Shown piece by piece: positions 14,347-20,538 of a DNA stretch of 64,000 nt (its first letter is position 1; each line of letters begins with the position of its first letter). Both the position numbers and the translations under genes were made by a program. Location: the NCBI GenBank assembly GCA_049325335.1, contig JBMOMC010000043.1, positions 213,852 through 277,851 of the forward strand. Reading direction: 5' to 3'. The notes below the pieces were generated by a model. It ran no database searches and was not told the DNA's origin. It was given only the letters and a program-made list of their open reading frames with translations. The stretch comes from Nitrospirota bacterium. Its GTDB lineage: Bacteria; Nitrospirota; Nitrospiria; 2-01-FULL-66-17.

Positions 14347-14376
14347 ATCCTAGCAAGCGCTGCGAAGGCGTGTCAA
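14347..14376 (-). promoter_or_regulatory. Putative promoter for a leaderless ileS mRNA
   Basis: TTGACA-N18-TAGGAT with extended -10 TG; 6 nt between the -10 box and the ileS ATG; no SD. Confidence 0.6.
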
Positions 14377-15113
14377 CGCGAGCCCAGGCGGGCCGACCAC
14401 AGCGGGATGTCGCCGCGCGCGACTAATTGTTGCGCCTCTTGGTAGCGCTCGGGCGTGCCAATATCGATCCAGGTGGCGTCTGAGCGATGCCCCATGAGCG
14501 GCTCGCCGCGCTCCACGATGGCAATGTACTCGTCGGTGATGGGCGAAAAGTGGTCCACCGGGATCGCCGCGAGCACGCGCGGATCGAGCACGTGGAGGCC
14601 GGTGAACATCACGTCCTCCAAGGCCTCGCTGGCGACGCCGCGACCCAGGAAGCGGCGAATCCGGCCCGCGGCATCGACGCCCAACGCGCCATAGGTTGCG
14701 GTGGCCGGGTCGCGCCGCACCGCGAGCGTGGCTAGCGGGCGATGGGCGGCGTGCGTTCGAATCAGGTCATTCGGGTCGAGCGCGGTCAACACGTCGGCGT
14801 TGACGATCAAGAACGGCTCGTCCTTGAAGAACCCCTCCACGCGTTTGAGTCCCCCGCCGGTGCCGAGGATGACGGGTTCCTCCGAATAGGAGATCGTCAT
14901 GCCGAAGCGCTCGCCGGTCCCCAAGGCCTCCTGGATCAACTCGCCCTTGTGGTGCAGGTTGATCATCACGTCGCGAATGCCAGCCGCCGCGACCCATCCG
15001 AGCGTGTACTCGATCATGGGCCGTCCCGCGATGGGGAGCAGGGGTTTGGGCAGCCGGTCGGTCAAGGGACGGAGCCGCGTCCCCAGGCCGGCGGCCAGAA
15101 TCATGGCCTTCAC
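14373..15113 (-). CDS. murU: Nucleotidyltransferase, MurU-like (MurNAc-1-P uridylyltransferase)
   Basis: MILAAGLGTRLRPLT...PKPL, WIDIGTPERY; coupled to an amgK-like kinase. Confidence 0.75.
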   Translation of the reverse strand: MKAMILAAGLGTRLRPLTDRLPKPLLPIAGRPMIEYTLGWVAAAGIRDVMINLHHKGELIQEALGTGERFGMTISYSEEPVILGTGGGLKRVEGFFKDEPFLIVNADVLTALDPNDLIRTHAAHRPLATLAVRRDPATATYGALGVDAAGRIRRFLGRGVASEALEDVMFTGLHVLDPRVLAAIPVDHFSPITDEYIAIVERGEPLMGHRSDATWIDIGTPERYQEAQQLVARGDIPLWSARLGSR

Positions 15114-16204
15114 GTGAACTCGGGGACGTACGGGGCGAGCAGGCCCCGCAACTCCGTCAGGTCCGGGTAGCGATCCAAGACCCGTTTGGCCGAGTGCAGG
15201 GTCGGCGTGACATACGGCAGATGCGTGGGCCGTCCTTTGACCTTTTCGATGTAGATGAACCGGCCCGCGGCTTTGAGGTTACGCTGAAATCCGGTGAGGT
15301 CGAACCGGCGGTGAAACGCCGACGCCTCGGGTCGGGGACCCGGAGCCGAAGCGAGATAATAATCGATCAAGCGCTCGACCATGGCGTGGTCGAGGGTGAC
15401 GTAGGAATCACGCAGCAGCGAGGCCAAGTCATACGTGCACGGGCCCATGAGCGCGTCTTGAAAGTCGATGACGCGAAGCCGATCGCCGGTCACCATGAGG
15501 TTACGGCTGTGGTAGTCGCGGTGGACGAACACCGCGGGCGCGGCGGCCAACTCGTCGGCGACGCGGGCGAACGCCCGACGGATGGCCTCGCGCGGCGCGG
15601 CCGGAACTGCGATGCCGCGGCGGGCTTCCATGCCGTATTCGAGAAAGTGATCGAGTTCCCACGCGAGCAGCGCGCGGTCGAATCGTCGCCCGAACGCCAC
15701 GCAACGGTTGGGCGCGGCGTCCGGGTCCGGCGCTTGGATGCGCGCAAGCTCGTCGATCGCCAGCCGATACAGTGCTTCAACGCGCTCCGGCGCGGCGCCG
15801 CCCAGGGCGTCGAACATGGTGCAGTCGCCCAGATCCTCGAGCACGAGACGACCGGCCACGACATCGTACGCGTGGATCGTGGGCACCGCGACGCCGCGGC
15901 CGTACAGATAGCGCTGGATGTTGAGAAACGGCAGTTCGGTGACGCCCGCGTCGCCGCCGGAGACCGCTTCTTCGGATCGCTTGAACGCTTCGGGTTCGGC
16001 CAACTCCATCAACACCAGGGTGGCCGGATTCGCGTCCGGGGTCAGCCGAATCCTCGCATACGTTCGGTTCGACGCGTCGCCCTTGAGTCGCTCGACCGCG
16101 GTGATCCGACCGGAAAGTCCGCCGATCTTCAGCAACGCGGTCAATTCCTCGATCGACGGGTCGCGACGAGTGGAAGGTGAGGGAGTCTGGGGCGACGTAA
16201 GCAT
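15110..16204 (-). CDS. amgK: Aminoglycoside-phosphotransferase-fold kinase, AmgK-like
   Basis: GDASNRTYAR, LEDLGD, HRDYHSRNL, IDFQDA, YDLASLLRD, QRNLKAAG. Confidence 0.8.
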   Translation of the reverse strand: MLTSPQTPSPSTRRDPSIEELTALLKIGGLSGRITAVERLKGDASNRTYARIRLTPDANPATLVLMELAEPEAFKRSEEAVSGGDAGVTELPFLNIQRYLYGRGVAVPTIHAYDVVAGRLVLEDLGDCTMFDALGGAAPERVEALYRLAIDELARIQAPDPDAAPNRCVAFGRRFDRALLAWELDHFLEYGMEARRGIAVPAAPREAIRRAFARVADELAAAPAVFVHRDYHSRNLMVTGDRLRVIDFQDALMGPCTYDLASLLRDSYVTLDHAMVERLIDYYLASAPGPRPEASAFHRRFDLTGFQRNLKAAGRFIYIEKVKGRPTHLPYVTPTLHSAKRVLDRYPDLTELRGLLAPYVPEFT

Positions 16205-16413
16205 CAGGACGGGCATTCTGCCATGTGGCTCACCCGGTGTCAAAGTCGTCCCGTCATAACGGGATGATCCGCGTTGAAAGGGACAGTGTTGTGGCATTGG
16301 CGCCACGACTGTGGTGTTTTCCACGCACCGAATTGTCTTTAAAGGGCAAATTCCTAGGGCTCGCCGGAGGCATGTCCTTTGCTTTTAGAGTAGCCACCAC
16401 AGGGAGGAGTGCC

Positions 16414-17319
16414 GTGACCAAGGCCGATGTGTGGCAGCAAACCATTCAACATCCCGTACGGTGCGAAGGCGTGGGCCTCCATTCCGGGCAGCCGGTGGCG
16501 GTATGGCTCCGTCCGGCCGAGCCCAATACCGGGGTTCGGTTCGTGAAGAAGACCCCTGCGGGTGATTCGTGGCTGCAAGCCAGTATTGAGGAAGTCTCGC
16601 AGACGCGACTGGCCACGAGCCTGGGGCAAGGCGGGTCGATCGTGCATACCGTGGAACACCTGCTCGCTGCGATTAGCGGGATGGGCATCGACAATATCGT
16701 CGTGGAATTGAGCGCGTCAGAGATTCCCATCATGGATGGCAGCGCCAAGCCGTTCGTCGAAGCGATCGTCGAGGCCGGGGTCGTTCGGCAGCCCGTGGCG
16801 CGTTCCGTGATGGTGATCACCAGGGCGTTTGAGGTGCGGGACGGCGACGGCTGGATTGCGGCTGAACCGGCTTCGCGGCTGGAGATCCACAATACAGTTG
16901 CTTATGATCACGCCGTGATCGGACGGCAGGAATTCGAGTACCAGGACAATGGACCGACGGCGTTTGCGGTGACACTCGCCCCTGCGAGGACCTTTGGATT
17001 TCTTCGCGACGTCGAGCAGTTGAAGGCGTCGGGGTACATTCTCGGTGGAAGTCTGGACAATGCCGTGGTCGTGGGACCGGCCGGGATTCTGAACCCGGAG
17101 GGCCTCCGATGGCCTGATGAATTCGTACGCCACAAGACACTGGACCTGGTGGGAGACCTGATGCTGCTGGGCACGGCGCTGTGTGGCCGAATTACAGCGT
17201 ATAAAGCGGGCCATCGCTTACACGCCCAATTCATGACCTATCTAATGGCTCATCCCGAATGCCGCCGGATGATCGGGGTGGCGCAAAGGGCATTCGAGCC
17301 GGCTGGAGCCGCATCGTAA
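16414..17319 (+). CDS. lpxC: UDP-3-O-acyl-GlcNAc deacetylase
   Basis: GVGLHSG, TVEHLLAA, PIMDGS, ARTFGF, EFVRHKTLDLVGD, KAGH; GGGAGG RBS. Confidence 0.95.
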   Translation: MTKADVWQQTIQHPVRCEGVGLHSGQPVAVWLRPAEPNTGVRFVKKTPAGDSWLQASIEEVSQTRLATSLGQGGSIVHTVEHLLAAISGMGIDNIVVELSASEIPIMDGSAKPFVEAIVEAGVVRQPVARSVMVITRAFEVRDGDGWIAAEPASRLEIHNTVAYDHAVIGRQEFEYQDNGPTAFAVTLAPARTFGFLRDVEQLKASGYILGGSLDNAVVVGPAGILNPEGLRWPDEFVRHKTLDLVGDLMLLGTALCGRITAYKAGHRLHAQFMTYLMAHPECRRMIGVAQRAFEPAGAAS

Positions 17320-17336
17320 ATACAAAATAGGAGGGC

Positions 17337-17420
17337 GGTCGTCACACTGCCAGCGGTGGTGTGGCGACCACAGAAGTTCGGTCACCGTAGCCCGGGGGCT
17401 CCTCAATCGAGGAGCCCCCG
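17337..17420. terminator. Two stem-loops between lpxC and the convergent micropeptide gene
   Basis: Perfect 12-bp stem CGGGGGCTCCTC-AATC-GAGGAGCCCCCG (17393-17420) and GGTCGTCACAC...GTGTGGCGACC (17337-17369); a T-rich tract follows on the minus strand. Confidence 0.6.
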
Positions 17421-17439
17421 ATCGCCTTAGCACAGCAGC

Positions 17440-17487
17440 TTACTTCTTCTTCGCAGCCTTCTTCTTCGCCGGTTTCTTCGTCGCCAA
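17440..17487 (-). CDS. Lysine-rich 15-aa micropeptide MATKKPAKKKAAKKK
   Basis: TTG start 6 nt after GAAAGGGGGTGA; TAA stop; 8 of 15 residues Lys; followed by hairpins; not in the ORF track. Confidence 0.6.
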   Translation of the reverse strand: MATKKPAKKKAAKKK

Positions 17488-17493
17488 GTGTCA

Positions 17494-18024
17494 TCACCCC
17501 CTTTCGCGATCGCCCTCTACCGGGGCTAGATTTGCTTCAGGTGCCAGTTCAAACGTATTCGGCGCGACTTTCCGGAATCGGGGATCTCTGCGCAGCGAAA
17601 TCGCGATCGACGTGATCGGTGTTTTCGCTCGAATCCTCATGCCCCCTTCGACCAACCGTTGATAGAGCTCCCGCGCGTGCATGGGTGTTCCGGATTCCCT
17701 GAGCAGCAACGCAGCGGCCTGTGGCACGCTCAAGCCAAAGTACTTGGTTTTTCCCAGCAAAATTTCCTGGGATTGATCCGGAACGTCCAGGAGGACGCGC
17801 TGTCGCTCCCGTTCGGCATCAGTTGACGGTGGAGCTCCGGTCCCTGCAACCCGCGCCTTTTCCTGTTCAACACGATAGAGCGTCTCCGCCAGCTCCAGAT
17901 ACTTCTTGATCGTTTTGATGTCTTCTTCTAATCGGTCGCGTTTTTTCTGGAGCTCGTGAAGCTTTGTTTTATAGGCCTTAATGCGTTGGTCAAGGCCACG
18001 GAGGATGTCCTGGAGTTCTTCCAT
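17494..18024 (-). CDS. Coiled-coil + winged-helix putative DNA-binding protein
   Basis: N-terminal ~55 aa heptad/charged coiled coil, flexible linker, C-terminal AALLLRESGTPMHARELYQRL...SIAISLRRDPRFRKVAPNTFEL resembling HARE-HTH/wHTH domains. Confidence 0.75.
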   Translation of the reverse strand: MEELQDILRGLDQRIKAYKTKLHELQKKRDRLEEDIKTIKKYLELAETLYRVEQEKARVAGTGAPPSTDAERERQRVLLDVPDQSQEILLGKTKYFGLSVPQAAALLLRESGTPMHARELYQRLVEGGMRIRAKTPITSIAISLRRDPRFRKVAPNTFELAPEANLAPVEGDRERG

Positions 18025-18086
18025 AATTCATAACCTGTATCATAGCGTCATATGCGAGCATGCAATCAACTGTAGCATGCACAAAC

Positions 18087-18116
18087 AACATAGCACTCAG
18101 TATTGCTTGCTGTCAA
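18087..18116 (-). promoter_or_regulatory. Putative sigma70 promoter for the 18024 gene
   Basis: TTGACA-N18-TATGTT with extended -10 TG in an AT-rich intergenic region. Confidence 0.55.
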
Positions 18117-18198
18117 GAAAAAATATTGTGGGATGTAAGTGACCAAATGTCTTGTGCTATAACCTCATACAAATGATTCCGTGACGCGTCGAGGGAAT

Positions 18199-20538
18199 AT
18201 GAAAAGCGGCTTTTGGCTCTCTCTTTCGGTGACCACGTCTCCTTCAGGCAGAAAAATTCGCTGGTTACTCGCGGCATACCTGTCAGGGGTGGTTTTCGTG
18301 GCATGCCAACCCTCGGGCGGAATCTCAGGCGGCGTGGCGACCCCAACGATTGGGGCGCTCCCAGCCAGCACGCATCAGAATCGGATCACGCTCACTGGGG
18401 GAAAGTCCTCGGGGACCGCGATTTTTATCGATGGCATCGCCAGGGTGGTTGTTGACGATCGGACAGTATGGACCGCAGCGGTTGATCTTCAGGAAGGCCT
18501 GAATACCTTTGAAGTCATTGCAATGGATGATTTGGGTAACCTCAGCGGACCGCTTATCGTGGAAATCAGCCGCGATACCGTGCCGCCGGCTGCTCCGACA
18601 TTGTCCGCGCCGACGTCGAGTCCGACCAACCCAGCGACCCTCTCTGGGACCAAAGAGCCTGGGACGTTTGTCCGACTCAATGGCCGACGGATCACGGAGT
18701 TGTCGGATGCCACGACATGGGAGTACCGGGCAACGCTCGCCATCGTTGGCGACAATACAGTCAGCGTCACCGCGGTGGACGAGGCCGGGAATGAAAGCGT
18801 TTCAGCGGACGCGGTGGTTACGCTCACCGCAGCGAGTTGCGACCGCCCCCCGCAACCGGTGTTCCCGCTCGACGGTCGCGCCATTCAGTGGGGCGTGGCC
18901 TTTTCCTGGTCGCAAGTATCGGCCAGCACCTACGACTTGGAGGTGTCGGCCTCTCCCGGATTCGAGAGCCTCCTATTGGATGAGCCCGTCGGCGCGGGGC
19001 AAACCGAATTCGCACCGATCGGGCTGGCTCCTTCTCGGGGCGAGTACTACTGGCGCGTGGGCGCGGTGAATGCGTGCGGCACCTCGTACGGTCCCACCCG
19101 CAAGGTGGTCATCGGGTCCACCACCGGCGACGTGAACGGCGATGGATACGCCGACGTGTTGGCGGGCGCGTACACCGACAGCCGTGCAGGCGGCGGTGCG
19201 GGCGCGGCGTACCTGTATCACGGCGGCGCGGGCGCAGACGCAGACGTCGTCGCCGATGTTGTCCTGACGGGCCGCGGGCCTGGCGACACGTTCGGGACGT
19301 CGGTTGCCAAGGTCGGGGACATTGACCAAGACGGGTACGTGGATTTCCTGGTCGGCGCGCCCCGCGTTGACCGCGATTCACAGGACGATGACACCGGGGT
19401 CGCGTATCTCTACTGGGGCGGCCCCGCAATGACCACGACCGCGAGCGTTGTTTTTCATGGCGAGACTGATCAATCCCTTTTCGGGATGTCTGCGTCTGGC
19501 GTCGGCGACGTCAACGGTGATGGATTCCCGGATCTTGCGGTCGGGGCGTACCAAACGTTGGTGGTGGCGGAGTGCAACGGCATCGAACAAGAGTTGCCGC
19601 TCGTCGGGAGGGTCTACGTGTACTTCGGTGGACCCCGCGACGAGATGGATACGCTTGCCGATGTGGTCTTAACCGGAGAGACCACCGAAATCCCCAATGA
19701 CCGGTCGAGCGCATGCCGGTCCGGAGACGAATTCGGCCTGAGCGTGGCCGGCGTGGGGGACATCAACGGCGACGGGTATGACGACATCGCGGTCGGCGCG
19801 CGTGGACACGATGACGGCGTTGATGCGGACGCGGGCCGGGCGTACGTGTTCTTCGGTGGGCCGTGGTTCGTCGGTGTGGGGGCTGAACGCGCGAATGTGG
19901 TGCTGACTGGGGATGCCGCCGACGATCAGTTCGGCGCAGCAGTCGCCGGCCCCGGAGACACCAATGGCGATGGATTCGCCGACCTGCTCGTTGGGGCGCA
20001 CCAGAGTGATGCGGGAGGGACGGATTCCGGATCGGCGTCATGGTACGGGGGCGGACCGGACGGGGTCACCATGATCCAACAGTTCTCCGGCGCGGTGGCC
20101 GGGGACAGTTTCGGGGCCTCGATGGCCCCGGCCGGAGATATCGACCGCGACGGCTTTGCCGACATGGTCATCGGCGCGTACCTCGTCGGCGCCTCGCCCA
20201 ATGACAGCGGTGCGGTGTCGTATTACCGAGGTAATGCGTTGGGTACGGTCCTTCTTGCCGGGAAGATTACCGGGGAGATTACTCCCAATCCTGATGATCA
20301 GTTCGGACGCGCCGTGGCCGGAATCGGCGACATTGACGGCGACGGGTTCGACGATACCGTGGTCGGGGCCACCGGCCATGATGAGTGTTTTTTGCTCGCT
20401 GATTTTTGTTTTGACGCGGGACGCGCGTATGTGATTGTCGGGCCCAGCGTAACGAATCGGGGAGCCAACGGGGATCCGAGGGACTGGCTCCTTTCCGGTC
20501 TCAGACCCGGAGACCGCTTGGGCTCGTGGGTCAACTGA
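18199..20538 (+). CDS. Surface lipoprotein with Ig-like domains and FG-GAP (integrin-alpha) beta-propeller
   Basis: FVAC lipobox; two Ig-like repeats (..D..GN.S); seven GD[VIT][ND]xDG[YF]xD Ca-binding repeats with FG..V / VGA motifs. Confidence 0.85.
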   Translation: MKSGFWLSLSVTTSPSGRKIRWLLAAYLSGVVFVACQPSGGISGGVATPTIGALPASTHQNRITLTGGKSSGTAIFIDGIARVVVDDRTVWTAAVDLQEGLNTFEVIAMDDLGNLSGPLIVEISRDTVPPAAPTLSAPTSSPTNPATLSGTKEPGTFVRLNGRRITELSDATTWEYRATLAIVGDNTVSVTAVDEAGNESVSADAVVTLTAASCDRPPQPVFPLDGRAIQWGVAFSWSQVSASTYDLEVSASPGFESLLLDEPVGAGQTEFAPIGLAPSRGEYYWRVGAVNACGTSYGPTRKVVIGSTTGDVNGDGYADVLAGAYTDSRAGGGAGAAYLYHGGAGADADVVADVVLTGRGPGDTFGTSVAKVGDIDQDGYVDFLVGAPRVDRDSQDDDTGVAYLYWGGPAMTTTASVVFHGETDQSLFGMSASGVGDVNGDGFPDLAVGAYQTLVVAECNGIEQELPLVGRVYVYFGGPRDEMDTLADVVLTGETTEIPNDRSSACRSGDEFGLSVAGVGDINGDGYDDIAVGARGHDDGVDADAGRAYVFFGGPWFVGVGAERANVVLTGDAADDQFGAAVAGPGDTNGDGFADLLVGAHQSDAGGTDSGSASWYGGGPDGVTMIQQFSGAVAGDSFGASMAPAGDIDRDGFADMVIGAYLVGASPNDSGAVSYYRGNALGTVLLAGKITGEITPNPDDQFGRAVAGIGDIDGDGFDDTVVGATGHDECFLLADFCFDAGRAYVIVGPSVTNRGANGDPRDWLLSGLRPGDRLGSWVN

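Follow-up and report, generated by a model that had tools for sequence, protein, structure and literature searches.

A conserved two-gene unit of Nitrospirota: a coiled-coil HARE-HTH protein gene followed by a micro-gene for a lysine-rich, H1-like peptide

What kind of system is encoded where a coiled-coil protein gene is directly followed by a minute Lys-rich ORF in a Nitrospirota genome? The locus lies in a stretch of 64,000 nucleotides (the window), for which an earlier note had proposed a new nucleoid or xenogeneic-silencer system, consisting of a Rok-analogous DNA-bridging protein and a basic H1-like tail supplied as a separate peptide. Our analysis indicates that the unit is real, conserved and apparently undescribed, and that it likely combines a HARE-HTH regulator with an H1-like polycation, a new silencer being the less probable reading. 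The order of HARE-HTH protein gene and tiny Lys-rich peptide gene is conserved in Nitrospira, which comprises the main nitrite oxidisers and the comammox organisms, and in its relatives. A literature search, mostly among papers outside subscription, returned no publication on the HARE-HTH gene or the peptide, and the best E value in an Rfam search was 4.6. The unit and its neighbour contain the following features.

18087..18116, minus strand: sigma-70-type promoter TTGACA-18-TATGTT (TTGACA at 18116-18111, TG-extended -10 box at 18092-18087)
18058..18080, no strand: candidate operator, two GCATGC palindromes at 18075-18080 (predicted start site) and 18058-18063
17494..18024, minus strand: gene of the 176-aa protein (ORF call)
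17545..17724, minus strand: HARE-HTH domain PF05066, residues 101-160 (Pfam E 1.3e-7)
17493..17505, minus strand: 13-nt Shine-Dalgarno GAAAGGGGGTGAT of the micro-gene, overlapping the last codons and the stop of the 176-aa gene
17440..17487, minus strand: micro-gene with TTG start, 15 aa, (M)ATKKPAKKKAAKKK (ORF behind the Shine-Dalgarno, family conservation)
17393..17420, minus strand: 12-bp G/C-rich, terminator-like hairpin closing the unit, with no U-tail in this genome
16414..17319, plus strand: lpxC (PF03331), convergent neighbour outside the unit, used as synteny marker

An A/T tract lies a little upstream of the promoter. A promoter scan of 16500-19000 found 2 sites against 1.0 +/- 1.1 in shuffled sequence and is not significant by itself, so the promoter call rests on conservation: every one of the 88 distinct upstream regions that were aligned has TTGAC at the promoter position, and about 88% have TA where the -10 box lies. 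The unit thus has its own promoter in an AT-rich intergenic region, as had been suggested, with an intergenic GC content of 0.40 and a GC content of 0.556 in the 176-aa gene. The surrounding region (16300-19000) is indeed less GC-rich than the rest (0.583 vs 0.647 for the whole window, the 5th percentile among 2.7-kb windows of the genome), which comes mostly from the promoter and the two genes. Horizontal origin, which the low GC content might suggest, was rejected because the protein gene is class-wide and stands beside lpxC, convergent and at most 2.5 kb away, in 58 of 82 loci.

The micropeptide followed by hairpins was likewise recovered, as a 15-codon ORF with the closing hairpin and a second, weaker one near 17335-17371 (z -2.8 for a 191-nt segment) behind it; neither was called by terminator prediction, and a hairpin 3' of the peptide ORF is also visible in the related loci inspected. 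In four studies the unit is covered by contigs from RNA runs of relatives with about 94% identity. Two of these studies have both genes and the hairpin on a single contig, and in every study the contigs begin 8-19 letters beyond 18050, slightly inside the predicted transcription start. They are a hint, not proof, that both genes share one transcript, because the contigs were retrieved using the protein gene itself. In this genome two TGA codons separate the peptide from the protein, with which it is in frame. Fusion of the two products by read-through was nevertheless rejected, since the homologues of 192-194 aa are extended at the N-terminus and the spacing between protein and peptide varies widely.

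The reading of the 176-aa protein as a coiled coil, a linker and a winged-helix C-terminus is supported by the ORF, the predicted model and the Pfam search. The match to HARE-HTH (32.3 bits against a cut-off of 25.9) assigns the protein to PF05066, of which it is the sole match in its genome, and 83 of the 89 members of the protein family match this profile. The predicted model has a single coiled-coil helix at residues 2-62 (pLDDT ~90-98), a disordered linker at 64-86 and a winged helix of three helices and two strands at 100-160 (pLDDT of the isolated domain 88.7), the basic HARE-HTH winged helix as a whole spanning about residues 96-162. Mean net charge over 98 sequences is +0.6 for the N-domain, -0.3 for the linker and +6.6 for the winged helix, and the C-terminal tail beyond the winged helix has 1-22 residues and a mean charge of -1. 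The coiled-coil pattern suggests that the protein dimerises. The gene has a weak Shine-Dalgarno, with an energy of -4.1 here compared with -7.9 to -12.6 in four HU/IHF genes and a family median of -5.2 (83 sites), and its GC3 is 0.60 vs about 0.8. Most homologues, acidobacterial ones included, end in small hydrophobic residues (QAV, EAV, QVA, AAS), which we take to be reminiscent of a C-terminal protease tag; the ending ERG of this genome's clade and closest homologues is due to the Shine-Dalgarno of the peptide, which overlaps the last codons of the protein gene.

Searches with the model confirmed that the C-terminal domain is a winged helix and that Rok is among the top Foldseek rows. With the whole model, Foldseek ranked Rok first (E 3e-3) and RNA-polymerase delta second, and with the domain it ranked delta first (E 3.3e-3, TM 0.64) and Rok second (E 7e-3, TM 0.59), no row reaching E 0.001. 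VIA placed forkhead domains (Z 8.6, rmsd 2.2, 71 aligned) and delta (Z 8.3, rmsd 2.7, 72 aligned) in a tie, and Rok was absent from its best 50 rows, an absence that is not decisive against Rok. Judged from the predicted model, the fold appears to be a tie between delta, forkhead and Rok. An NCBIfam search with the protein returned coiled-coil noise only; sequence searches of the PDB yielded coiled-coil peptides plus a single weak row for delta (E 0.46).

Rok and sRok of Bacillus (PF23159; PDB 5zuz, 5zux) share with the protein the plan of an N-terminal dimerisation helix, a neutral linker and a C-terminal winged helix, and the accessible part of one study describes for Rok the neutral linker and bridging by dimers (PMC9757077). 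The wider plan of H-NS, MvaT, Lsr2 and Rok, with an oligomerisation domain, a flexible linker and a DNA-binding domain, is also present in the predicted model. The acidic N-domain and basic linker of H-NS, MvaT and Lsr2 are absent, as the charges given above indicate, and Rok is the published exception to this rule. A search of the genome with the Rok profile PF23159 gave nothing at E <= 1, with B. subtilis as a positive control; H-NS, MucR and Lsr2 families also had no match in the genome, and H-NS and MucR had none in four relatives. The winged helix belongs to HARE-HTH and not to the Rok family. According to the available portion of the source, Rok prefers AT-rich 5-mers through the minor-groove triad N154/T156/R174, which acts with K171 (PMC6212790); the footprint of the present protein is a single palindrome with a GC core. 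Its helix 3 begins with K-T-P-x-T-S and its wing has the sequence K-V-A-P-N-T-F, and in a presumed register neither Asn nor Arg stands where the published spacing would place them. A partner peptide of Rok is not described in the accessible parts of three sources (PMC6212790, PMC6936261, PMC9757077); here a peptide gene follows.

The phylum sample comprised 401 genomes, 134 of the window's class and 267 outside it. The protein was matched in 121 of the class genomes, 119 of them strongly and with one strong copy each, the remaining two being a broken remnant and a distant relative; outside the class, 10 of 267 genomes had a match, seven of them strong and all from one family. Named homologues belong to Nitrospirota, identity is 56-91% among the best 120 matches, and a helix stretch at residues 40-53 is near-invariant. 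The conservation of the protein exceeds the needs of a simple local repressor. More distant proteins of the same plan exist as well; in the phylum of G401, which is likely Acidobacteriota, 8 of 150 genomes have such proteins, about 50% identical in the domain. Four genomes of that phylum (L154-L157) have a related winged helix at the end of a 335-475-aa protein, upstream of an apparent sigma factor/anti-sigma pair. Another distant protein with this coiled-coil/winged-helix plan (L165, G321:C23:88760-89285; 175 aa) lies away from lpxC and adjoins a short ClpP-like ORF, with no peptide ORF nearby.

The second gene was followed in 82 loci (52 and 30 from two homologue sets). All 82 contained a Lys-rich ORF with a 10-13-nt Shine-Dalgarno at most 700 nt downstream of the protein gene, and eight contained two, so the expected co-occurrence of micropeptide and orthologues was found throughout these loci. 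The peptides have 11-62 residues, 53% Lys and 28% Ala. Near-identical 12-aa forms differ by 428 synonymous and 25 non-synonymous codon changes; the peptide is under purifying selection and, by the evidence of its sequence, is a real gene. Its Shine-Dalgarno pairs with the genome's own 16S tail at -21.2 kcal/mol, which equals the strongest best-start among 3717 long ORFs, and the median over 86 sites is -19.8. TTG is the start codon in 55 of 90 peptides and may temper output, and AAA-AAA is rare (36 of 572 Lys-Lys pairs).

Profile scans need a longer sequence than the 15-aa peptide, and longer homologues were used in its place. The long forms match Hc2/H1-like models weakly (E 5e-3 to 3e-5) and below cut-off; against PF07382 and NF038053 the longest homologues scored 17.5 of 40 bits and 24.4 of 80 bits and fall outside both families. 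The peptide shares Lys/Ala/Pro composition and repeat pattern with the C-terminal domain of AlgP, with chlamydial Hc2 (PF07382) and with NF038053, and the KPAA domain of AlgP is tied to DNA and polyphosphate granules in the available part of the source (PMC9239181). It differs from these proteins as a free peptide without a folded domain, far under the cut-offs and with its own gene and a maximal Shine-Dalgarno. A loose peptide pattern, found in 131 of 141 genomes, also matches ordinary genes and was not used as a count. The one match in viral contigs was the N-terminus of a longer ORF, with no micro-gene. Elsewhere in this genome (G000:C2, near 67200-67510, plus strand), a small predicted coiled-coil lipoprotein ends in an H1-like tail, KPKPAPKPAAKAPAKKAPAKKK, which is the only other H1-like tract in the genome.

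Do the two products work as partners? Nine Nitrospiraceae genomes have no intact protein gene, and eight of them (G083, G136, G210, G285, G295, G311, G357 and G371) keep the promoter and the peptide ORF beside lpxC, with protein-gene remnants that are frameshifted, truncated or eroded beyond recognition; the ninth (G325) has no peptide beside lpxC. In the LpxC tree the losses fall on 3-4 branches, and a single clade was rejected (7 rows vs 16, p-AU 0.001). An apparent co-loss of protein and peptide came from a search pattern blind to GGGGGGTGA sites. In other classes a peptide of this kind stands behind an HTH-nucleotidyltransferase gene, accompanied or not by a HEPN gene, and in two families of the class it occurs without such a neighbour in the stretches examined, once still beside lpxC. 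It is also found in tandem, and some genomes carry unlinked extra copies. Conversely, eight strong acidobacterial homologues of the protein have no peptide ORF within 1.5 kb, and a narrow peptide pattern had no match in the eight acidobacterial genomes, a count that weighs little. Five genomes of families f4, f7 and f10 have neither part at lpxC. On this pattern of gene content, the protein and the peptide are not obligate partners; since either can occur alone, the proposal that a separate peptide supplies the basic tail is weakened. A similar idea is known from H-NS with Hha/YdgT, where a small basic partner adds positive charge to a bridging protein, as described in the accessible part of the source (PMC6936261), but here there is no H-NS fold or charge asymmetry, and the peptide is unfolded and persists without the protein. 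The HTH-nucleotidyltransferase genes that precede the peptide in six loci (L101-L103, L089, L104 and L106), mostly together with a HEPN gene, resemble a type VII toxin-antitoxin pair and score below the MntA cut-off.

The loci without the protein gene also point to a candidate operator. The two GCATGC palindromes are likely the site that the winged-helix protein would bind; both are retained in L001, and among the 39 sites of W-GCATGC-W in the genome only these two lie in a context below 45% GC. Across Nitrospiraceae, the palindrome AAGCATGCTT at the transcription start has decayed exactly in the eight genomes that retain the locus without an intact protein gene, whereas the promoter is retained in 8/8. 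Behind the -10 box, AAGCAAGCATGCTT has 0-2 mismatches in 25/25 located intact Nitrospiraceae promoters (33 tried, 8 dropped because the search pattern found no promoter, and two rows being one genome) and 4-8 mismatches in 8/8 loci that lost the protein gene, a comparison that covers 3-4 losses within one family, whose members are not independent. A genome-wide search of 26 genomes found the element at the gene's promoter in 18/18 intact and 0/8 lost cases, and no excess elsewhere, other sites being no commoner than a reversed control. A regulon was rejected on the same ground, as no other AT-rich promoter in this genome has the palindrome. The palindrome could also have decayed as a feature of the 5' leader after the first gene became useless. 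The 88 aligned upstream regions are studded with AGCA/TGCT half-sites, and AGCA is over-represented in the genome (rho 1.41). Outside Nitrospiraceae the half-sites are arranged otherwise, for example as TGCTTTAAAGCA in the promoter spacer, an arrangement suggesting that the site is short and flexible and could be bound genome-wide too. As a separate observation, CAGCTG is strongly avoided genome-wide (observed/expected 0.15) and so are several other palindromes, which suggests restriction-site avoidance.

Several lineages lost the protein and yet kept the peptide. The free Lys-rich peptide is thus the likely main product of the unit, and the protein, likely present in small amounts, probably represses its own promoter, a reading to which we give a probability of roughly one half. 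From a palindrome that is kept and lost with the gene, and from the weak Shine-Dalgarno of the protein, we infer a scarce autorepressor. A strong sigma-70 promoter would drive one mRNA for both genes, the protein would dimerise through its long helix, and two tethered winged helices would bind AGCA/TGCT half-sites across the start site and damp transcription. The peptide would be translated heavily and might act as a sequence-independent polycation like the tail of histone H1, which neutralises or condenses DNA, or RNA or polyphosphate. The protein would set the dose of the peptide and would itself be dispensable, the peptide working without it. The earlier note had expected a protein that is neither scarce nor confined to one operator; a single palindrome at its own start and a weak ribosome-binding site suggest the opposite.

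The proposal of a Rok-like nucleoid protein or xenogeneic silencer, whose dimers would bridge DNA genome-wide at short sites, its own promoter being no more than the best of these and charge perhaps being added by the co-expressed peptide, we consider unlikely on balance. It accounts for the Rok-like plan with a neutral linker and a basic winged helix, for Rok being in the top two Foldseek rows and for the lack of known silencer families in the genome, as well as for one strong copy per genome behind a strong promoter; patchy distribution is likewise found for Rok in the available part of the source (PMC6936261). The same Foldseek rows all fall short of E 0.001, Rok is outside the VIA best 50, and the Rok Pfam model is unmatched apart from one of the 89 family members, a distant one (E 0.0011). 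Each genome has the conserved site once, and its core is G/C; the ribosome-binding sites are weak and GC3 is low, and peptide and protein each persist without the other. On the other side, silencers can repress their own genes too. The indirect signs, namely the weak Shine-Dalgarno and one conserved site per genome, point away from a xenogeneic silencer. A bolder version, which appears quite doubtful to us, combines both products into an unrecognised Nitrospirota chromatin module. The free H1-tail peptide would be a major nucleoid polycation, invisible to gene callers and trypsin proteomics, and the coiled-coil/HARE-HTH protein would be a fifth, convergent bridging silencer, which reads short AGCA half-sites, binds the peptide via its invariant acidic helix stretch, and senses and sets its dose.

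The micro-ORF may instead act as an RNA or translation event (a ribosome sink, an mRNA stabiliser or a lysyl-tRNA sensor) with the peptide as a by-product. The near-complete pairing to the 16S tail, the frequent TTG starts, the very short ORF followed by a hairpin and the rarity of AAA-AAA pairs would fit such a role, but a Lys/Ala/Thr/Pro composition held over 11-62 residues, the H1-like repeat expansion and the tandem and unlinked copies make it improbable; moreover, there is nothing downstream to attenuate in most loci because the next gene is convergent. We hold it to be less probable still that the protein is an RNA-polymerase-associated factor like delta (RpoE), with the peptide replacing or modulating delta's lysine tract. 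Delta is in the same Pfam family, as the control genomes confirm, ranks first for the domain model, and is, along with forkhead domains, the best structural neighbour. Delta has an N-terminal HARE-HTH domain and then a long acidic tail, and this architecture was not found here; the domain is C-terminal behind a 60-residue helix, basic and without an acidic tail, and has another helix 3, the delta stretch FYTDLN aligning to IAISLR. The promoter element is also lost together with the gene.

A conserved and selected gene for a polycation of 11-62 residues is a candidate chromatin or polyphosphate factor, one that would escape standard annotation and tryptic proteomics. The locus also offers an unusually direct way to study a bacterial HARE-HTH protein that stands alone, and the predicted operator together with the natural knockout series of close relatives with and without the gene makes its specificity and any global role testable. 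The divergent gene at 18199-20538 (plus strand) encodes an ordinary surface protein of 779 aa that carries Ig-like domains and seven FG-GAP repeats, and a phosphotransferase (APH family) and nucleotidyltransferase pair at 14373-16324 (minus strand) is presumably amgK-murU of peptidoglycan recycling.
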